This document shows, in pieces, positions 16,817 through 57,325 of a stretch of DNA of 64,000 nucleotides. The notes under the pieces were generated by a model. It was not told the DNA's origin, ran no database searches, and was given only the letters and a program-made list of their open reading frames with translations. The position numbers and the translations under genes were made by a program. Where the stretch lies: the NCBI GenBank assembly GCA_004764695.1, contig SMSO01000032.1:6728483-6792482 (forward strand), given 5' to 3'. Within the stretch, counting starts at the first letter, position 1. The number at the start of each line of letters is the position of its first letter. Origin of the DNA: Schizochytrium sp. TIO01 (taxonomy: Eukaryota; Protista; Bigyra: Labyrinthulomycetes).

Positions 16817-19573
16817 TTAGGCTGCTGGTACGATGCGAATTACAGCGACAGTCTCGGCCTCAGATTTATGCATTGGATGTTCATGCAAATCAGCTGCGGC
16901 GCCAGGGACTGAGGTTTTGGAGAGCTTACCTTTCAAACGAAGAGCAGAGGAGCACACGAATTCATCCTCTGAGCTGCGATACACTACACAGCGCAGCTCG
17001 CAAGGAATTTGCGTAGCAGTCGGGCAAGAGGCACCGGAGAAATTTCTTGGGGCATGCAGATCTTCACCAAAATTCTCCAGACCTGGCGAGACAATCAGTC
17101 CTCCCGTGAGTGCTTCTGGTACCAGTGATACTGGCTTGTCCACGAAATCGAGCCCAAGAGTCTCTAAGGAAATTAATACGCGACCTCCCTTGAAATTGTC
17201 GACAAGGTTCACAGACAATGTGCTCTCTGATGCGGTCCAAAAGCAAGACGTTATGCACTCCGGGCACCTACTAAGGAAAACGTCTTCAACATCGCCTACT
17301 TTATGTGTAGAGTTTCTTAGCACATCGTGCAGTGATATCCTCACGAGGAGGTCTTTGTAAGTCAAAACAGGTTTTCTACGTGTTTCCTGAGACTTTTCAT
17401 TTGTTCTATCGCCAGCTTGGGCAATGCTATGCAGCGAGAGAATAATGCCACAGAAATCATCCTCGCGATCTTTACGACCATGGATGATTTCTGCTGTCGC
17501 ATAAAGGGGGACATGCAGTGGGCGCCATTCTGAATGCGACCAGTATAAAGCCACATTCTCCTCGACTCCATCTCCTTTCATGGACAAGTTGCATCTCATG
17601 ATTGTTTTTTTCTGCCCATCTTGTACGAGTTCTGCACATGCAGGATCGACGCGGAAAACAATGTTTTTCTCTTCGTTCTCTTCTGGATATCCTAATTCTG
17701 TGAGATCGATCGTGACACCACACAGAGGAGTCGGATGTGTGGTAGACACATATACTTTGCCACGGACCATGCATTTTGATACCTGCATTTGCGCTATCTG
17801 TTCATCCCAGACACAATCCGCGATTAACTGCTCACGGACGGAAATCTTCAGCCCGTAGTCCTCTGTACATTCAGTCTTTTCTAAGCTGACCATTGGTTCT
17901 TTGGTATCAACTTGGCTTTCCGCATCGCCCAAGTTCAAGTCCTCAGCATAGACCAAATTACTCATTGTAGATGAAGATTCTAGACCCCCTGGAGTCATAT
18001 CCTTGAAGGGATCCCATATAACTTCATTGGTAACCTTGTCCTTATCAATCACAGATTTTGATCTGTTAGACGAAATGCTAAGAGTGATCACTCCATGTTC
18101 TGTTCTTTCTTGTTCTGTTTGGAAAGGGTCCCAGATGACTTCTGGCGAGAGGTCCTCTAGTACTGGAGAAGACTCGAACTCCTTTGTAGTTGTGCTCTCG
18201 CGCTCTGCTAAAGAGCTTTCTCCGTATGGAAAAGTATCATTAGGATAACCAGTACGCTCGCTTAAAGATTTCCTATATTCATATTGAAGTCCCGTTAGTG
18301 GGCCTAAGGTAGTACTCGCATCTCCAGATTCTCTTAGCTCATCTCTAAAAGGGTCCCATGAAACTGAAGAATCCTGCATATCCAGAGTCTCAAAAGCAGT
18401 TGTGAATTCATCAGGGGCAACTATCGATGTGTCCTGGGTGTTCAAACCGTCTTGATGCTGCTGGCGTTGAAAGATTGCTGACATAGCCACGTCAGAGTCA
18501 CTCCCCAGAAATGGATCGAAGGCGACTTCCTCGCGAGTCGAGACCTCCTCTAATGCTACCTCTGCCCGAGCACTGCCCTGCGGCAAGCCGCTTACATGCA
18601 ATTCTTTTTGCCTTGATCCTGCAGGGCGTGTATCCTGGAGCACGGGGCTGTCAAAGACAGGTGGTGATACCTGAATGCACATTTCAGAGATTGTCTCGCC
18701 AAAATCCTCCTCTACCAGAGATTGCCAATACATTGCCGCTTTTCGCTGCTGTTTAGATGCCTTTTTGCGTCGATCACGTTTGGAATTTGGGGATGACATA
18801 CCTGGCTGTGTCTGCACAAATGAGCTGAGGCCAGGGAACACCGTCGCTGTAGGCACGCTGGCTCGCTCTTCAAGGTCGTGGAGGGCAGCCACTTGCATTT
18901 TTTCTTCAAGGAAATCATGTTGCATAGCCTCCCAAACCTTCAGGCGTCGTCCTTCATCGGGATCCGGCTTGCTCAAACGCATTTCTGCAAGCTCTTGTTG
19001 GCTCATGCTTCGCGAAAGGTTTTTATTAGACGAGCCCCTCTCTGGAGTAGAGTTGGGCAAATATGACAGCCCCGTTACTGACAGAGGGCGCTTTATCAAG
19101 TCCATGGCATCTCGACCTGTGCACAGAATTCGAAGCAGAGCGATCAGAATGTCTCCAAAATTCCGGTTCACTCGCTTTGCCGTGACTTTCTGATCGCAAA
19201 GAACCAATAAGTAGTCAAGAACTCGACCCAAAACAACAGCTGTTTCCCAAATCTCGTCAGAAATGTAACTACAACTTACGATCCAAATATGCTGGCAAAG
19301 CACATAGTGCACGCGATAGGACCCAGCAACAATGTAAACATCCTGTGTTCGTTATTAGCTTGTAAGAGAATCCGTTTCTGTCAGCCACTCCACACTCGAG
19401 ACCAATCATAGCTTAAATTGCCAAAATTATACACTCACCTCAGCAGGATCTCGAGGGAACCGTCTGTGCAGAACTTTTGCAAAACCTTGCAGAATTTGCT
19501 CTGCTTTGTTGAGCATAAGTAAACCTATAGCACACAGCCACCCCAGAGGTGCATAGAGTTCCTTTCGCACCAT
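16817..19573 (-). CDS. Medium-subunit-type coat adaptor: N-terminal longin domain, DPF-rich linker, C-terminal mu-homology domain (TCUP/TML-like); exons 19573-19439 and 19342-16817
   Basis: Spliced N-terminus DVYIVAGSYRVHYVLCQHIWIVSCS...KVTAKRVNRNFGDILIALLRIL resembles the longin domain of TML/delta-COP-type medium subunits; LKISVREQL...SKCMVRGKVYVS resembles the start of a muniscin/mu-homology domain. An additional upstream exon is possible. Confidence 0.7.
19343..19438 (-). other. GT-AG intron (96 nt)
   Basis: Donor GAG|GTGAGT, branch-like GCTAAT, acceptor ACACAG|GAT; joins a 45-codon ATG exon in frame to the 831-aa ORF. Confidence 0.8.
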
Positions 19574-21513: not shown

Positions 21514-22269
21514 CTAAAAGTCAAAATGGCTTATACCCCGCCCCCAGAATGCTATCAACAGACTACTAACCAGGAGCAGAGGCCTCTTCATTGCTGCTAC
21601 CGAATTCACCTTGATAGTTATCTTCTCTTGAAAAATCTTAGTTGTTTCCGATGCTGCTACCTCTATAGCAATCGCCTCGCAACTTGTAACACCTCTCCAG
21701 TAAGCCACAACATTATCATGTTCTTCGGCGTAGATGATTAACTCATAGCCGGTCATCATGAGTGAGAGATCCGTACGATTTAAATCGCATCTCACGATGG
21801 TACGATCATCAACTGTACTGCGTCTGGCAAATCGGAATTCCCATGTTGTTTCATTCAATTTGATTAAGTCCATTGCATCGCTGTTTTTAGTTGCTAAAGG
21901 GTTGCTCATGTCGCATTCTAGCGGGAAGTATAGATCTGATGAGAAGTCAAGCCTTCGATTGTTACAACATGTTAAGCAATACGAAGAATCACCTGTAAAT
22001 GTGGAAGTCCATGAGAAATCAGAAAATACGCCGCTCAAGTCCGACGAATCAGTTCCTTCATCTTCATTATACACACAAGTTGTCATGTTGATTCCTGAGT
22101 AGCATTCTGACAGGAGCCCTTGAACATTGTCTTGTGTTGACTTGTCTACTAGCTGCCCGTAAATATCGCTTGTCTGTTCAATAGCTACTGAGACGCACAC
22201 TTGAGAGGCAAGAGTGCCAATCAGACACACTGCTGCCTTTAGCTTTGGTCTAGGCCGTGGTCGCCTCAT
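21514..22269 (-). CDS. Secreted or surface Cys-containing hypothetical protein (signal peptide, hydrophobic C-terminus, possibly GPI-anchored)
   Basis: Met at 22269 gives MRRPRPRPKLKAAVCLIGTLASQVCVSVA; several Cys and N-x-T sites; C-terminal LLLVSSLLIAFW. The upstream ORF extension runs through a homopolymer tract and is unlikely to be coding. Confidence 0.75.
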   Translation of the reverse strand: MRRPRPRPKLKAAVCLIGTLASQVCVSVAIEQTSDIYGQLVDKSTQDNVQGLLSECYSGINMTTCVYNEDEGTDSSDLSGVFSDFSWTSTFTGDSSYCLTCCNNRRLDFSSDLYFPLECDMSNPLATKNSDAMDLIKLNETTWEFRFARRSTVDDRTIVRCDLNRTDLSLMMTGYELIIYAEEHDNVVAYWRGVTSCEAIAIEVAASETTKIFQEKITIKVNSVAAMKRPLLLVSSLLIAFWGRGISHFDF

Positions 22270-22869
22270 TGAGACCTTCGCCACCACCTGATTCTCATTT
22301 GGGTCAAGGGTTCTGTCAAAGTTTAAGACAGCAACGGTCCTTTTTCTCCCCCCCCTTTTTTTTTTTTTTTTTTTTGTAAAGAAAAACAACATTAACAATA
22401 AATACATGAGTAATGGTACTCCTACAGGAAATCACGAATCATCTTTCGAGTGATCCATTGCTAACACGCACTTGAGCTCGGGGATACACATGTTTGAAGT
22501 TAACATCGAGAAATGTATATTAAGAAACTGTGAGCGAATCAATTGTTAACGCGATTTACTCCAAAAAATGGATTTTTTGCGTTTTTGGTCAATAAAAATC
22601 AAGAAATATTTCAGTCATGGCTTTGCAGAACAATTTGTTGGATTAGTAGTTATAACATAATTTGGGAGCGCCCTCTGGTGTTCTACCTCGGGAAGTATGT
22701 CACGAAAAGTAAGGAAGAAAGGAGGGTGTTTTTAAAAAAAAAGAAAGAAGAAAAAACATGTCATCAACTGATATCTCGATTGATGTGTCGAGAAGATAAA
22801 ACGTTGGAAAGGGTCCAAAGCATTTGACAGACAGTCGCTTCAAATCGCTAGCCGCATCCAGAACTAGCA

Positions 22870-23832
22870 TTAGTCTGATTGTTGAGAAGGGATAAGTGCG
22901 TCTGTTTCCCTGTTTCGCTTGCCAAGCTTGGGCAATATAAAGAATACACTAGTCGTTGCTTTGTAGTTTTCGTAGTCAGGCTGACCTCCCCATTTCTCAT
23001 CAGCTCGTTTCTCAAGAAGAGGGACACCTGAGACAAAATTGAGTAAGCAAAATACAAAGACGGGGGATAGTACGGCTGCCCATTGTGTTCCCTCAAAGCT
23101 GGATGCACAGAAAAGAAACATACCAGTCCATAAAGTAAATTCACCACAGTAATTCGGGTGTCGAGAATAATACCAAAGACCATACTCAATAAACTTGCCC
23201 TTGTTGGCTGGATTCTCACGCCAAACAGATTTTTGATGATCTGCTAGAGCCTCAATGCCCATGCCAAGGACCCAGATGGCCAAGCCAACATAATCTAGCG
23301 GGCCGAGCCCACGTTCAGAGGTAGTTGCATTAGCAATGAGAACCGCATACGCAGTGACAAACACCCAGAGTGCTTGAATGTTCCAGACATTCAAGAATCG
23401 CAGGAAATTGGGCTTAATTTCGTCGAAGCGACCATCTTTGCCGTCGCGTAGAATGCGCCTAAACAAGAAGCTTCCGAGGCGGACGGCCCAAATCGTCACT
23501 AAAATGCTTGCAATGGTCGGCCGCAAGCTCACGGGACCTGATTTGCTTTTGTAGCCCGCAGAAAATGTGTACCATGTGCAGGTGAGATAAGTCAGACTTC
23601 CTGTTAGATCAAAGAATCTCTCGGTCTGAAATACATATGCGTGCACGAAAACCAGAAGATTGATGCCGAAGCTCAAGACTATTGCCATTTGCAAGATTGT
23701 GAGCTTAGGCACGAAAGGATCGTCACGACCAGCACCAAGGTAAGTAAGACCTATTGCAACTCCCCAAACGACTACCAGCGCAACGAGACTTAAGAGGGCC
23801 TTGAGTGCCGGTGAGCGCTCTGCTTGAACCAT
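22870..23832 (-). CDS. DUF1295 / steroid 5-alpha-reductase C-terminal-like multipass membrane protein
   Basis: Motifs ERFFDLTGS, WAVRLGSFLFRRI..DGKDGRF, EALADHQK, GLWYYSRHPNYCGE, SGVPLLEKRA; first ATG at 23832. Confidence 0.92.
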   Translation of the reverse strand: MVQAERSPALKALLSLVALVVVWGVAIGLTYLGAGRDDPFVPKLTILQMAIVLSFGINLLVFVHAYVFQTERFFDLTGSLTYLTCTWYTFSAGYKSKSGPVSLRPTIASILVTIWAVRLGSFLFRRILRDGKDGRFDEIKPNFLRFLNVWNIQALWVFVTAYAVLIANATTSERGLGPLDYVGLAIWVLGMGIEALADHQKSVWRENPANKGKFIEYGLWYYSRHPNYCGEFTLWTGMFLFCASSFEGTQWAAVLSPVFVFCLLNFVSGVPLLEKRADEKWGGQPDYENYKATTSVFFILPKLGKRNRETDALIPSQQSD

Positions 23833-24607: not shown

Positions 24608-27600
24608 CTACTGCGACTTTTGCTTGTTTAAGGCTACAGCTTCTACATCTTGGAGGTCGCGCTCCAGCGATAGTCGTGTAGTCTTTCGATGATGACCAGA
24701 AGCAGTTTGAGTTGCTCTTGCACGAAGCTTCTTTGTAACCCGACGCACGCGAGATGTGGCAATGTCTCGAAGCCTGGAAAAAATGTCTGGGAAATCTTTC
24801 AGAGCTGTCAAAAGAGCATCGCGATCTAGCATGTAAAGAATTGAAACTGCAGTTGCCTTGGCTGAAGCCGTGCGGCGCACAGGGAGCACCAGTGAAACTT
24901 CTCCAAAAAAAGAGCCCGCTGAAATACTTGCAATCGGGACCAGCTTTGGTGCGAGCCAACTATCATCTTCGGATACTGTTGATGAATTTCCCCGGGGTTT
25001 CGGTACGCGTTTCGAACTGGAGTTAGAATTGGGTATCGGTGTATCTTCTTTGGTAAACTCTTCGACATAAATAAGAATTTTTCCAGAAGATATAAAAAAC
25101 ATGGAATCCCCAGTTGTGCCTTCCTCAATAATAATATCATCTTGGAATGCAACCATGGGGGTGAGAGAGGTGGCTAGACTAGAAATAAAACCATTTCCAG
25201 TACAATCGCGAAAAAATGGCACTTTGAGGAATAGCTCCCTTGATGTGAAAATCATGATGTCCCTTCGTAACGAAGGACTCAGATCTTTCATAATAGCTTC
25301 CTCGTTGAAAATTTTTCCTTCTGAATAGCGGAGAGCAAAATAGTCCCGCACTCTATCTCTCAATGGTGGAGGAAGGCGCTTGCTGCGCATATATTCGTTA
25401 AGCTGCTGTGTTTTCTCCTGATACAGGCGTGAGGCCATATTCATACTAAATATTATAGAGCTGATATTTGAAATCATGATGGCATAAAATACTGAACCAA
25501 GGTACATACTGCCGAGAGTAATCCACATTTCCACAGCACACCAAGAATCATCGAGGTCGCTGCAGTTCAAATTTGTGATTGGGGGCGTCTCAAAGCCAAT
25601 GCCAATCATTTGGCCAAGGGCTTTGAAAAACGCCCACATATACTGTTGTCCTTCAGACTTATCCTTAAGTCCAGACATGACAACCCAACTCGATTCTGGA
25701 AAATCCATAACTCTGCACATCATGAATTGTAAGCAACCAATCCAGTGTGCTAATACGAGCAAAAGCATACCCAGCTTGACCATTCTCATGGTGCTATCGT
25801 GAATGCGCACCTTTAGCTTGTCTTCAAGAAACCGCCGCCAGAAAGAAAAGTACTTTGCGGCGCGGCCCATCCGTAGAATACGTACTAATTTGGCGATCCT
25901 AACAAGGCGGATCAGCTTGAGAGTTTTTGTTGACCTTGTTAGAGCGTCTTCCTCTACACCGCTTATATGACTAATTATCACATCAATAGGAAACGAAGAA
26001 ACTAAGTCAGGAAAGAACCATGTCCACAAATAATGAGTGATAACGTCACTTTTGTGGAGGTGCGTAATCCCATCTGCATCGCAATAGCCTGTGAAGAAGT
26101 TTTTCACTATGTCCAGGCAAAAAATAACATCAACAGCAAGATTGAAGGATGCCATGTGGTCATTGAGATTCTCAAAAGCGAGGGATAGTGGTAGTGAAAT
26201 AACGGTGATAATCAGAATTGCAGAAATAGAAAGGTCCCAAGTGATATGAAATGTACTGTAAGGATGAATAATCCAATTACTTTCTGGTTCCCAATCTTCA
26301 AACTCCACTAGCGGAGTTCCAGTTGTGGCATTCGCAAGTCCCGGATTACGTATTGACTTTGCAATGTCTCCAATGTGAAATTTGGTCACATCAAAAATTC
26401 TTCCAACGGTTACTCCATGTTGGGCTCCTGTATTCATTTCCAAAGAGTTTACAATCGAGTGATACCAATCAGCTAATTCTTTGAAGGAAACAGATCCATC
26501 TCCATTGGCATCGATAGCCTCAAAGAACTTTTGAATATCCTCCAAAGCGATTTCTGAACCGAGCTCTACTTCAAGGTAATTCCCTAACTCTTCGCAAGAA
26601 ACCGTCCCATTTCCGTCCATATCGTATCGCCGGAAAGACTCCCAAAGATCTGGGTAAAGTTTGCGCAGTTCACTCTCGGAGTAGTTATTCTGCTTGTATG
26701 CGCTATCCTCAACAGGATTGGCTGCAGAAGACATATCTTGCTCCTGAAGGTTTCGCTGTGCGCCTTTCTTAAGGTCATTAAGTTCGTTAAGATCCTTTAG
26801 GACGGAATCATTTGGTTTCATACGTTTCAAGCTTGACAGAGGAGTTATTGACCCGGATCGAACTTTCCCGCCAAAGCCTTTAATAAGATTGCTAACTTGT
26901 GCAGATTTGAAAAGGGTGGCACGAAAATTAGACCCAAATTTTCCTTTTGTTTTAACATCTGTCTCTTGCGATGGTGGTTTGTACATCGAAGACCTTCGTA
27001 TTTTATCTCGCGTACCATAGCTCACGCTCTGACGAGTTTGAAAATCTGATATCTCTTTTAATAGCCCTTCAGTTCCTGATGGATTGGTTGGGGACGTAGG
27101 TGTCGTCGGGGTGCTTCTTTGTCGCAACGGGTTTACAGAGGATAACACATCTTGGATACCAACGTCTAGTCCCGCCATTGCAAGGCGTGACCGGAGCTGT
27201 TGCGGAGCAGTGGATAAAGCCCGAACGAGCTCAGATACAACCTGTTTGGTGGATTCTTCATCAAGTGTGATACGCTGTGAAGCCTGGGACTCCAAGGTTT
27301 CTCTCGTACTTTTTCTATTTGCAGTTTCGTGATACTGAGAAGCATCCTGTGTGTAATCATCCTCTTTGTAGTCTGGCCTGGATAGACTGTTCTGGTGATC
27401 TTGTTGTGAGTAAATTGTTGCTTGATTCGTTTCTATGTAAGTGGACCAATCAGCTCCAGACGATCGCATACTACTTTGTGGTGCATGTGCTTGTAGTTCT
27501 ACCGAATTGTAGGTGGGGAATGAGCTGTCGCCAAAATAAGTTGCTTTTGGCTGAGGTGAACTGAATTCGATTTGGCCTGTAGCTGTCGGATTTTGGTAAT

Positions 27601-27895
27601 GCTCAAATGACGGAGTCACAGCACTATATCCTGTTTTCTGCAAAGGGGGTAAAGTTGATCGAGGTGGTGGCGTCCGTCGTAGTCGCGTTTTACGAGGCCT
27701 ATCTGAAGGTTGATTCATTGTTTGTACAGGTATTGAAAGTCTCTTATTCGCCTGGGTACTTGTCCTTTTTGTATTGAACGAATGCTGATATCCTGGAGCC
27801 GTCCATTGCTCCTCTGCGTCTGACTGGGTTGTCTCATATGTGTATTTGTTGCTTCGGTCTAAACCTTGATATGTGTTGCTTTCATCAGTTGGCAT
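24608..27895 (-). CDS. HCN-like cyclic-nucleotide-regulated cation channel with N-terminal EF-hand pair
   Basis: WIIHPYS before S1; S4 KTLKLIRLVRIAKLVRILRMGR; pore helix FFKALGQMIGIG; C-linker YQEKTQQLNEYM..KRLP; CNBD FGEVSL..RRTASA; EF loops DMDGNGTVSCEE and DANGDGSVSFKE. Confidence 0.93.
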   Translation of the reverse strand: MPTDESNTYQGLDRSNKYTYETTQSDAEEQWTAPGYQHSFNTKRTSTQANKRLSIPVQTMNQPSDRPRKTRLRRTPPPRSTLPPLQKTGYSAVTPSFEHYQNPTATGQIEFSSPQPKATYFGDSSFPTYNSVELQAHAPQSSMRSSGADWSTYIETNQATIYSQQDHQNSLSRPDYKEDDYTQDASQYHETANRKSTRETLESQASQRITLDEESTKQVVSELVRALSTAPQQLRSRLAMAGLDVGIQDVLSSVNPLRQRSTPTTPTSPTNPSGTEGLLKEISDFQTRQSVSYGTRDKIRRSSMYKPPSQETDVKTKGKFGSNFRATLFKSAQVSNLIKGFGGKVRSGSITPLSSLKRMKPNDSVLKDLNELNDLKKGAQRNLQEQDMSSAANPVEDSAYKQNNYSESELRKLYPDLWESFRRYDMDGNGTVSCEELGNYLEVELGSEIALEDIQKFFEAIDANGDGSVSFKELADWYHSIVNSLEMNTGAQHGVTVGRIFDVTKFHIGDIAKSIRNPGLANATTGTPLVEFEDWEPESNWIIHPYSTFHITWDLSISAILIITVISLPLSLAFENLNDHMASFNLAVDVIFCLDIVKNFFTGYCDADGITHLHKSDVITHYLWTWFFPDLVSSFPIDVIISHISGVEEDALTRSTKTLKLIRLVRIAKLVRILRMGRAAKYFSFWRRFLEDKLKVRIHDSTMRMVKLGMLLLVLAHWIGCLQFMMCRVMDFPESSWVVMSGLKDKSEGQQYMWAFFKALGQMIGIGFETPPITNLNCSDLDDSWCAVEMWITLGSMYLGSVFYAIMISNISSIIFSMNMASRLYQEKTQQLNEYMRSKRLPPPLRDRVRDYFALRYSEGKIFNEEAIMKDLSPSLRRDIMIFTSRELFLKVPFFRDCTGNGFISSLATSLTPMVAFQDDIIIEEGTTGDSMFFISSGKILIYVEEFTKEDTPIPNSNSSSKRVPKPRGNSSTVSEDDSWLAPKLVPIASISAGSFFGEVSLVLPVRRTASAKATAVSILYMLDRDALLTALKDFPDIFSRLRDIATSRVRRVTKKLRARATQTASGHHRKTTRLSLERDLQDVEAVALNKQKSQ

Positions 27896-37027: not shown

Positions 37028-38112
37028 TTACACGTTCCAGCCAGAAGTAGGGCGCTCCACCGTGGGGGCGGAACTTGGGACGTTTGTCGGTGTTGATGTT
37101 GGTTTCAAGGTGGGAGCCATAGTAGGCGAGTTGGTTGGTGCCTTTGTTGGTGCGTCAGTAGGCAGAGGAGTAGGGAATTTAGTGGGACGAAGCGTAGGCA
37201 TCGATGTCGGCGCACCAGTAGGTAGCGGGGTAGGTTCAGGAGTGGGGGCGTCTGTGGCCTCAGCAGTTGGCGAGGTACCCCATCCGTAAGAGGCAGTGGT
37301 GGGTTTCTTCGTAGGCTGCTTAGTGGGTGCAGCAGTAGGGCTTTCCGTAGGTTCTAGGGTCGGGGCGGCAGTAGGAAACGAGGTAGGGGCTTCAGAAGTC
37401 TTTCCCTCAATACCAGCAGGAGAGTAGGTCGGGGCATATGTGGGCCATGTTTCCTCTTCAACCCATTCAGTAGGCTCGGAGGTGGGCCATGTTTCCTCTT
37501 CAACCCATTCAGTAGGCTCGGAGGTGGGCCATGTTTCCTCTTCAACCCATTCAGTAGGCTCGAGGTGGGCCATGTCTCCTCTTCAACCCATTCGGTAGGT
37601 GAAACAGTGGGAGAGTCCGTGGTGTCACATTCCTCAGTCAAGAGGCACTGCTCATCGTCCTCATTGTAGTAGCATGCCGCAAAAAGGTTGCAGACGGACT
37701 CGGAAAGATCATCACCAGCACAACCGTTGGTGGGGAGATCATAGCATGTGCAGTTGCTAGTTGCATAGCATGCAAAGTCATCGTCATCCCAGAGGCAGCC
37801 GTCCGCAATTTCACAGCTCTCGGAGTCATCACCAAATTCACTGCATGCAGTGTTGCCGCCAAAGTTACATTCATCGGGGCGGTCCGAAGAAACTGTGCCA
37901 ATCTCAAGCTGGCTGGAGGAATCATCTAGCTCACCATCAGCACTGCTAACAGAGGTTTTGTTCGATGCTGAGACGCCAGCGGCAATTGCAACGACAGCGA
38001 CGATACCGAGCGCAGAGCCAATAACAATAGCTCGTCTTGCCTTAGTTGAGAGGTTGTACCACCAAGATCTCGTGCTGTCCGACGCGTCATGAATTGCGGC
38101 AAACTCGGGCAT
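37028..38112 (-). CDS. Type II membrane Cys-rich / PT-repeat mucin-like protein (paralogue 1), interrupted by a 1-nt frameshift near 37562
   Basis: ORF 37354..38112 (TM, Cys-rich) and ORF 37028..37573 (PT repeats) join if one G is restored in repeat unit 3; homologous throughout to 47967..48839. Confidence 0.8.
37440..37599 (-). repeat. 42-bp coding tandem repeat (PTEWVEEETWPTSE), about 3.8 copies
   Basis: Units start at 37440, 37482, 37524 (41 nt, lacks one g) and 37565. Confidence 0.95.
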
Positions 38113-55996: not shown

Positions 55997-57325
55997 TTAG
56001 TAGAGCTGGGCAAAAGAATGAAGCTGCACCTGAGAGGAGGTATCATAGACGAACCAACGCTTGCCTTCACTTGTCTCGTCCGTAAGAATGCAGACAGCAT
56101 TTGTTTGAGGAGGAAGATCTGCAGGTATGTGTGCCATTTCTTTGATACGCTCGGACGGGCCGAGGGCAAGATGCACACAAATCATATACAAACCACTTGC
56201 CTTTGTAAGCGAAGACGTTTTCTGATGGTGCCTCATAGCATCACCAGGGTTCTCGAAGAAAGATACATATCCCCTTTGGATTCCCAGGCAACTAAGCGCG
56301 GATGCTCGAGGAGGAAGCACGCCCCGTCGTAACACACTTGCCATCGCACAAGCTGGGCGCACGGTATAGGCGACGTGAGTAGGGCCCATTTGTTTCCATG
56401 AGTCAAAGAGAAGTGCGTTTTGTGGATTATTAATACGGAATGAGTCTCCGACTGGAATGTCCTCTTCAACAATCTCCCAGAACTCGCGCATACCCTCATC
56501 ACTAGTCTGCACTTCTGTAATACCCTGAGGGTCAAGCAGCAATTGTTTGATTTTCTCGAGATCTTCATCAGTTCGTACAATTACAGCATCCATGTCGCGA
56601 AAATTGTCAAGGCGGCACAGAGTCTCAAAGCGACGATCTAAAGCTTGTTGATTATCAAGTTTCAGATCCTCGTTTGTGCAAGGGACGATTTCGTGGAATT
56701 TAACACGCATTAGATCAAAGAATCCATGTCGCTGATTGCTAGCCATGGTTTCCCGCTGTTGCTCCTCAGTTTCTTGTTGACCAGATCCAACCTCCTGCTT
56801 TGAGGTTTGGTATTTCTCTTCCTCTACGAGAGTGCTTAGAACTCGAGCAATAATACCAAATGCGTTTTCAAAGGTCGCGTCCGTAACATCTTGTACTCGG
56901 AGGCTGTTCAAGTCCAATTGCAAAGATGCAGACGTGAGAGTAATGGTACCCCTAGAGCCAATATTTAGAGCAAGATTTTCCAAAGGCGTTGCAGGATCGG
57001 CACTTGGAGCTCTCTGACGTCGCTTTGTCAAACGCTTCCGTTTATTGGCCTTCTTACGGCGCTGAGGCCGCTCTTCTTCACTGCTCGAATCATCTTTGTC
57101 AGCTGGGTTGTCAGACTCTGAGGAGGAGTTTTCTTCTTGAATCTCTGCGCAAACTTCTTGAAAAATCTTCACCAGTTTTTTTTTTGAGATTTTCACTTCA
57201 GCATCAGGCAGAGCTTTCTTGACAACCCTTGGGAGGTCTCCAACTTTAATCACCTGAAGCTTGTCTGCATCTCTTGCTAACTCGCGAAAGACCTCCCTGA
57301 TCTTGCCATCAAGCTCACTGTTCAT
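55997..57325 (-). CDS. Divergent, probably catalytically inactive PARP-fold protein (helical regulatory + ART domain) with DEK-C-like N-terminus
   Basis: First ATG at 57325; KFHEIVP resembles PARP regulatory FYTLIP; VLRRGV, ICVHLALG and WFVYDTSSQVQL parallel PARP1 ILSQGL, LGEVALG and YIVYDIAQVNL; basic NLS-like stretch. Confidence 0.7.
   Translation of the reverse strand: MNSELDGKIREVFRELARDADKLQVIKVGDLPRVVKKALPDAEVKISKKKLVKIFQEVCAEIQEENSSSESDNPADKDDSSSEEERPQRRKKANKRKRLTKRRQRAPSADPATPLENLALNIGSRGTITLTSASLQLDLNSLRVQDVTDATFENAFGIIARVLSTLVEEEKYQTSKQEVGSGQQETEEQQRETMASNQRHGFFDLMRVKFHEIVPCTNEDLKLDNQQALDRRFETLCRLDNFRDMDAVIVRTDEDLEKIKQLLLDPQGITEVQTSDEGMREFWEIVEEDIPVGDSFRINNPQNALLFDSWKQMGPTHVAYTVRPACAMASVLRRGVLPPRASALSCLGIQRGYVSFFENPGDAMRHHQKTSSLTKASGLYMICVHLALGPSERIKEMAHIPADLPPQTNAVCILTDETSEGKRWFVYDTSSQVQLHSFAQLY

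Follow-up and report, generated by a model that had tools for sequence, protein, structure and literature searches.

An HCN-lineage channel with an EF-hand pair and no GYG filter motif in Schizochytrium and related stramenopiles

Introduction

What kind of channel results when an EF-hand pair, an HCN-like core and a selectivity filter without GYG are found in one polypeptide? The question is raised by a stretch of 64,000 nucleotides from Schizochytrium sp. TIO01 (contig SMSO01000032.1, forward-strand positions 6,728,483 to 6,792,482; "the window," with coordinates counted from its first letter), in which a single open frame of 1095 amino acids runs along the minus strand at 24608-27895. A preliminary description, made from the letters alone, had taken its product for an HCN-like channel that integrates voltage, cyclic nucleotide and Ca2+. 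We find that the protein belongs, within the HCN lineage, to a stramenopile branch marked by a cysteine-pair insert behind the filter, by loss of GYG and by a usually retained EF-hand pair, and that it fails strict membership tests for both HCN and CNG channels. Judging from sequence, we give a probability of roughly 0.5 to its being a non-selective, Ca2+-interacting cation channel of HCN descent, regulated by cyclic nucleotides and with a built-in Ca2+ feedback.

Part of this is already in print. Pozdnyakov, Safonov and Skarlato (2020; PMC7576140) grouped the orthologue from Hondaea fermentalgiana, GBG27007.1 or "Hond7007," with metazoan HCN (100/1), described the S4 of such protist channels as lacking Ser/Thr, and tabulated the Hond7007 filter as "GIGF-"; the parts of the text consulted give no function for it. 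Filter deviations are treated there as belonging to individual channels, with metazoan CNG, a separate clade in their tree, as the sole clade-level exception, and "EF-hand" or "EF hand" does not occur in the main text. What goes beyond that account is the EF-hand pair and a filter deviation that is clade-wide, not that of a single channel. In the literature searched, which left subscription journals and bioRxiv supplements outside its scope, so that an earlier mention is possible, we found no paper on EF-hand HCN-like channels; the longer filter motifs occurred nowhere in the literature text among the matches listed.

Domain architecture of the channel

The features of the open reading frame (ORF), with the evidence for each, are as follows; CNBD is the cyclic-nucleotide-binding domain and pLDDT the predicted local distance difference test score.

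24608..27895, minus strand: channel subunit of 1095 residues with EF-hands, six transmembrane segments and C-linker/CNBD (ORF, Pfam, PDB alignment; no joints in contigs)
26687..27895, minus strand: N-terminal region, residues 1-403, predicted disordered and unconserved (pLDDT <50; alignment)
26435..26677, minus strand: EF-hand pair, residues 407-487 (Pfam EF-hand_7, E 1.7e-12, above its cut-off; helix-loop-helix pair, pLDDT ~78-92)
26276..26434, minus strand: residues 488-540, joining the EF pair to S1, in the place of the HCN domain of HCNs (pLDDT mostly <50)
25994..26254, minus strand: S1-S3 of the voltage-sensor domain (HCN4 alignment; model helices)
25814..25936, minus strand: long S4, with K669 (25889-25891) at the HCN Ser break (HCN4 alignment; clade conservation)
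25709..25798, minus strand: S5, with K707 at the HCN S5 Asn position (HCN4 alignment; row counts)
25604..25654, minus strand: HCN-like pore helix (HCN4 alignment; model)
25580..25603, minus strand: selectivity filter GIGFETPP, one residue short of the GYG register (motif position; register test)
25529..25567, minus strand: post-filter insert with Cys778 and Cys786, then Glu789, predicted to be extracellular; putative disulfide
25205..25546, minus strand: S6 and C-linker, with N819 at the HCN S6 Asp position (HCN4 alignment; model)
24710..25204, minus strand: CNBD with G998-E999, R1008-T1009 and C-helix R1049, and a disordered insert at residues 949-982 (Pfam cNMP_binding, E 1.2e-9; conservation; fold match)

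As a subunit of six transmembrane segments with C-linker and CNBD, the protein is a member of the CNBD channel superfamily. Every motif named in the preliminary description lies where it had been placed. The EF loops (26588-26623, residues 425-436, and 26477-26512, residues 462-473) form a canonical pair, two 12-residue loops in paired helix-loop-helix motifs, each with acidic or amide ligands at positions 1, 3 and 5, Gly at 6 and Glu at 12, and are predicted to bind Ca2+. GIGFET occupies 25586-25603 and the Cys-flanked insert NCSDLDDSWC 25538-25567; S4 carries a basic residue at every third position, ten in all from R654 to K681, of which K669 aligns with the S4-break Ser of HCN4. FGE (24899-24910) and RRTA (24866-24877) of the CNBD are intact, and the C-helix Arg is retained as R1049. 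The CNBD β-roll also holds a low-confidence insert of about 34 residues (24950-25051), which is found at the same position in the Hondaea protein (P0003) and in P0004 and is absent from most other relatives.

Kinship with HCN channels

The best sequence matches in the PDB are HCN4 and HCN1, at 255-269 bits, with Eag, hERG and CNGA channels at about 95-104 bits (CNGA1 at about 103), and in a pore-only search all 15 matches at E<0.001 are HCN chains. For residues 400-1062, AlphaFold2 with 47 input sequences gives a model (mean pLDDT 82.8, predicted TM-score 0.63) whose best fold match is HCN4 (Z 25.4, root-mean-square deviation 3.6, 470 residues aligned; CNGA1, Z 22.0) and whose C-linker/CNBD matches that of spHCN (2ptm) with Z 24.0 and a deviation of 1.2 over 192 residues. 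The ESM Atlas returned only matches below 0.9, to generic CNBD channels. Descent from CNG was rejected on the bit scores (HCN 269 vs CNGA1 103), the trees having been built without CNG rows, and in those trees the channel is nested among GYG-bearing HCN-like rows. In the broad sense, that of grouping with HCN and not with GYGD-type CNBD channels, the protein is of the HCN lineage, in agreement with the preliminary description and with the published placement of its orthologue.

It shares S1-S6, the long S4, the pore helix, the C-linker and a CNBD with its phosphate-binding residues with metazoan HCN1-4 and spHCN. Unlike these holozoan channels, it has GIGFETPP in place of CIGYG, K669 in place of the Ser/Thr break in mid-S4 and, among the closed-state contacts, FWR in place of QWE, K707 in place of the S5 Asn, and R704 paired with N819 where HCNs have S5 Arg with S6 Asp; it adds the EF-hand pair and the Cys insert. 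The N-terminal HCN domain is likewise without a match: a scan with Pfam Ion_trans_N (E<=0.05) detected it in 0/24 clade proteins against 3/6 GYG HCN-like proteins, a weak test that missed half of the comparators. Nor does the protein have the TIGETPPP filter of metazoan CNG, which is two residues short of GYG; ETPP is present and the aromatic is retained.

A stramenopile clade without GYG

The family set was drawn from 185 matching proteins, of which 235 domains with 330 or more profile positions covered were kept; P0002 and P0019-P0057 were excluded as near-copies. Trees were computed without the filter and turret columns and had GYGD-type channels as outgroup; none of their rows was identified as animal CNG or KCNH. 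The 62 rows labelled by their post-filter Cys pair form one clade with a support of 100, within a group of 110 rows (100) that also holds 48 HCN-like rows chosen by the motif [CSG]IGYG and is split from the GYGD outgroup at 100. IQ-TREE runs on subsets of 75 and 40 rows recovered the same clade at 100; in them two GYG rows branch outside, and the clade joins the other GYG rows at 96 and 86. Because the clade nests among GYG-bearing HCN-like rows, GYG is likely ancestral, on sequence evidence, and the clade filter derived. Only in the quick mixture-model tree do four thraustochytrid-like rows branch as sister to all others, at 94.

The Cys pair is present in 62/62 rows by virtue of the labelling, and its members are 6-7 residues apart in 57/62. 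All named members of the clade are stramenopiles: Hondaea, Thalassiosira profunda and Thalassiosira sp., Conticribra, Triparma, Cyclostephanos, a bolidophyte and Aureococcus. The absence of pennate diatoms, oomycetes and brown algae from these names is no more than a hint. Of the named relatives, Hondaea GBG27007.1 is the closest, with 73% identity over residues 400-1060.

Two side observations concern the family at large. UniRef labels the Triparma-cluster channels P0060, P0062, P0287 and P0291 "Calmodulin," which would hide them from name-based surveys. P0081 from Chromosphaera perkinsii, a holozoan HCN-like protein, combines SIGYG and an Ion_trans_N match with Lys, not Ser, at the S4 break.

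Voltage sensor, gating contacts and nucleotide site

The residue aligned with the HCN Ser break is Lys in 60/62 clade rows and in 5/48 GYG HCN-like rows; this Lys, as first described from the letters, is thus a property of nearly the whole clade, and was already published for the Hondaea orthologue. Since some GYG channels share it, the Lys says little on gating polarity. Hydrophilic residues at the S4 break favor hyperpolarization gating, lysine being absent from the main text of that study (PMC6904216), and the idea that K669 signals reversed polarity was rejected on both grounds. The contacts between S4, S5 and S6 described for closed spHCN (PMC7078272) are altered throughout much of the clade: the S5 Asn is Arg or Lys in 48/62 rows, the S6 Asp is Asn in 44/62, QWE is absent, and in most cases 2-6 residues have been added to the S4-S5 stretch (43 vs 37 or 41), with the S5 Arg kept (R704 here).

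These features bear on the best-surviving alternative, that the protein is an ordinary HCN channel, opened by hyperpolarization, passing K+ and Na+ and shifted by cAMP, in which the filter Glu does no more than line the outer mouth, the EF pair serving to adjust gating or trafficking. The nesting of the clade among HCN-like channels, the HCN-like pore helix, the long S4, the retained S5 Arg and the preference of hydrophilic break residues for hyperpolarization gating all speak for it. The altered closed-state contacts and the missing HCN-domain match do not, and neither does the filter, GYG or GFG occurring in 0/62 clade rows as against GYG in 48/48 HCN-like rows (the latter selected by motif). 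On balance we consider an ordinary HCN channel unlikely.

The nucleotide site, intact in our channel, is conserved across the clade: Gly is found in 57 of the 62 rows, Glu/Asp in 56, Arg in 57, Thr in 53 and the C-helix Arg in 55, with 4-7 rows gapped. The Thr after the Arg and the Val at the specificity position of the C-helix suggest, on our assumption, binding of both cAMP and cGMP; the Asp to which we attribute the cGMP preference of CNG is absent.

The selectivity filter

Filters of the type G[FY][EDQT]xxP are found in 32/62 clade rows (18 G[FY]ETPP, 12 other G[FY][ED]xxP and 2 G[FY][QT]xPP), and the other 30 are very divergent (10 GE[EDN], 20 other). The conservation of GFE that the preliminary description proposed to survey thus holds for part of the clade, whereas the loss of GYG holds for all 62 rows. 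A pore-region search returned 33 further proteins, of which 27 have GFETPP, three have variants and three have no match, the search having been seeded by those very words. The first filter position, Gly in our channel, is mostly Met or Gly in the clade and not Thr.

The preliminary description had ascribed an altered selectivity to replacement of the last Gly of GYG by Glu. A filter that is not of the K+ type is supported; the replacement is not. Counting from the first Gly, Pro is found at +6 (47/48) and +5 (30/48) in HCN-like rows and at +4 and +5 in clade rows. In a register test on unique motifs (15 clade, 44 HCN-like and 99 GYGD) with 500 bootstraps, a one-residue deletion scored 6.5 vs -2.8 when compared with HCN and 2.4 vs -7.4 when compared with GYGD channels, was best in 495/500 and 500/500 bootstraps, respectively, and also beat a two-residue register; replacement was rejected accordingly. 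One close relative has GYDVAP, which equals a GYGD-type motif minus one Gly. Because the one-residue deletion fits best, the Glu falls into register with the Asp of GYGD and with the Glu of ETPP in CNG, and GF-ETPP sits between GYG and the TIG-ETPP of CNG.

ETPP after the filter Gly is thus common to our channel, to CNGA1-4 and to the mimic NaK2CNG-E, and an intact CNBD is shared with CNGA1-4. Unlike CNG, the channel has one more aromatic ahead of the Glu, two prolines (PP) where CNG has PPP, a first position that is not Thr and a highly charged S4. Given its HCN ancestry, the resemblance to CNG is likely convergent, so far as sequence can tell.

By analogy, loss of K+ selectivity is a well-founded expectation: the filter lacks the Thr of TVGYG as well as one residue of the GYG turn, and filters with fewer than four contiguous sites are non-selective in NaK and MthK. 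Three-site filters are non-selective, and removal of the first site makes NaK2K and MthK so (PMC3082925). Ca2+ permeation by way of the filter Glu is plausible but weaker; in the TIGETPPP of CNG this Glu is responsible for Ca2+ block (PMC4555469).

The divergent filters, reading like GGEEM, AYEYP or AFAEP in sub-branches such as P0068, P0073, P0079, P0087, P0090, P0102, P0207 and others, occur in proteins that retain S4 charges and CNBD. These sub-branches, several of them without EF-hands, are candidates for non-conducting or differently selective subunits, and the same may be asked of our channel: its central pore might be non-conducting, or conduct in heteromers only, the protein being a regulatory subunit or a sensor of voltage, cyclic nucleotide and Ca2+. 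Zebrafish HCNL1 offers a precedent, its pore being degenerate and protons passing through the voltage sensor. The 30 divergent filters agree with this view, as do paralogues within one organism (two proteins each in Triparma verrucosa and Aureococcus) and a bridged Cys insert that could cap the mouth. That G[FY]ETPP is retained in thraustochytrids, diatoms and bolidophytes whose proteins are about 35-39% identical overall argues instead for constraint on the filter, and the run of basic residues in S4 is unbroken; a silent pore is thus rather improbable for the channel described here.

The EF-hand pair

Among the clade rows, 44/62 have at least 100 residues before S1, of which three were set aside as too short, leaving 41 scorable. 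EF-hands are present in 33 of these, namely in 24/24 with a GFE-type filter and 9/17 with other filters, and in 0/29 scorable GYG HCN-like rows, so that the EF architecture surveyed at the suggestion of the preliminary description is widespread and specific to the clade among the rows compared. Two canonical loops are found in 25/33, across distant lineages, and 8/33 fail the pattern; counts of individual loop positions are circular, as the search pattern demands those residues. Rows with EF-hands occur here and there across the clade; four changes account for their distribution, which fits an ancestral EF fusion with later losses.

An EF-hand pair in a channel of the voltage-gated family is also known from plant and diatom TPC1, which differs in having two repeats with the EF pair between them and no CNBD. 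Its second EF-hand is needed for Ca2+ gating in plants (PMC11085791). Integration of voltage, cyclic nucleotide and Ca2+ by our channel may be inferred from its domain content.

The EF-hands could alternatively be structural or constitutively occupied in a channel that is cyclic-nucleotide-regulated and non-selective, with no Ca2+ feedback. That 8/41 scorable rows lack them, that 8 of the other 33 are non-canonical and that some 50 low-confidence linker residues separate the pair from S1 would suit such a role; the canonical state of both loops here and in most EF-bearing rows of distant lineages would not, and inert EF-hands seem improbable to us. A complex prediction of the EF pair with the C-linker/CNBD, Ca and cAMP gave a score of 0.00 and a mark of 0.34 and counts neither for nor against.

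Sequence support from independent studies

Contigs of four runs from four studies cover the whole stretch, spanning it in one piece in 2/4 runs, and list no substitution or indel in the filter codons; those of one run (X2) are identical to the window and may be from the same strain. The same filter is carried by the aligned Hondaea protein, and the same architecture by 12 aligned relatives. Pooled over these runs and the RNA-like ones named below, 25 strain differences lie within the ORF, with 9 silent and 1 changing in the core and 7 silent and 8 changing in disordered parts (Fisher p 0.04); in residues 1-403, 7/13 alter the residue. With the same letters in four studies, the same architecture in 12 relatives and mostly silent core differences, a GFE motif or EF fusion that is an artefact of sequencing or assembly, or a decaying gene, is ruled out for all practical purposes, and with it the sequencing error against which the preliminary description had cautioned. 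Four further runs from three studies, guessed to be RNA (none is recorded as such), cover parts of the gene with no joints listed, which hints no more than weakly at a transcript without introns.

The proposed mechanism and what weighs against it

In the reading that we prefer, the subunits would form a tetramer with the fold of HCN, as the model suggests, and would pass cations non-selectively under control of voltage and of cAMP or cGMP. The filter Glu may bind or pass Ca2+, giving block or permeation by analogy with ETPP in CNG, and Ca2+ that comes in by way of the pore or close to it would act back on the channel's own EF pair, which would thereby do from within what calmodulin does in modulating CNG channels. 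The Cys pair, as a disulfide, may stiffen the outer mouth.

Several points weigh against this proposal. The register test rests on four positions and its result is driven by prolines, and the model is weakest at the filter and turret (pLDDT block means of 83 and 67). The aromatic that CNG lacks is retained, so that the Glu may point away from the pore; the Glu side chain of NaK2CNG does not coordinate Ca2+ directly, a single Pro-to-Thr change weakens the block in the fly channel, and the clade has PP, not the PPP of CNG. The divergent filters may mean that some members of the family have a weakly constrained pore. The association of EF-hands with filter type comes down to three independent pairs and is not significant. 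Finally, P0119 and P0171, partial and outside the 62, have GFG with the Cys insert and are nested in the clade, possibly by a secondary return to Gly.

Neighboring features of the window

Downstream of the channel, after 776 bases, the minus strand carries a DUF1295 gene (22870-23832) as a separate ORF, the channel's stop being at 24608. In Hondaea GBG27007.1 a DUF1295 domain is fused to the channel C-terminus, replacing the end of the C-helix; no bridging of the two ORFs was found among contigs of the RNA-like runs, and the fusion is likely an error of the gene model. The following features were also noted.

16817-19105, minus strand: ORF of 762 aa without Pfam match
21514-22407, minus strand: ORF of 297 aa without Pfam match, Cys-rich, with a hydrophobic C-terminus
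55997-57325, minus strand: ORF of 442 aa without Pfam match
37440-37611: 42-base tandem repeat, ~3.8 copies at 97% identity, within the ORF 37354-38112 (minus strand)

Implications

The clade contradicts the statement in PMC7576140 that metazoan CNG is the only deviant-filter clade among these channels. It adds a candidate channel linked to cyclic nucleotides and Ca2+ to centric diatoms, bolidophytes, pelagophytes and thraustochytrids. This candidate is undiscussed in the diatom Ca2+-channel survey PMC11085791, in whose main text the words HCN, CNBD and "cyclic nucleotide" never appear; in a survey of channels in 623 genomes (bioRxiv 10.1101/2025.02.15.638427), supplements aside, neither "EF hand" nor "selectivity filter" occurs in the available text. 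With a charge at every third position and no Ser break, the S4 offers a case from nature on which models of HCN gating polarity can be tried. Engineered mimics such as NaK2CNG have been the main means of studying how a K+-type GYG filter turns into the Ca2+-binding filter of CNG, and a conserved natural family with the one-residue intermediate in an HCN background makes that step directly testable.

It is possible, as a tentative proposal that we hold with less confidence than the reading given above, that stramenopiles made a second, independent CNG-like Ca2+ channel from the HCN type, by a one-residue deletion in the filter, a disulfide-tied insert and an EF pair in place of the HCN domain, followed by filter diversification. 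If so, GF-ETPP would be a natural halfway state between GYG and TIG-ETPP, and the channel might serve as a cyclic-nucleotide-to-calcium converter of flagellated cells, that is, of zoospores, bolidophytes and the sperm of centric diatoms.

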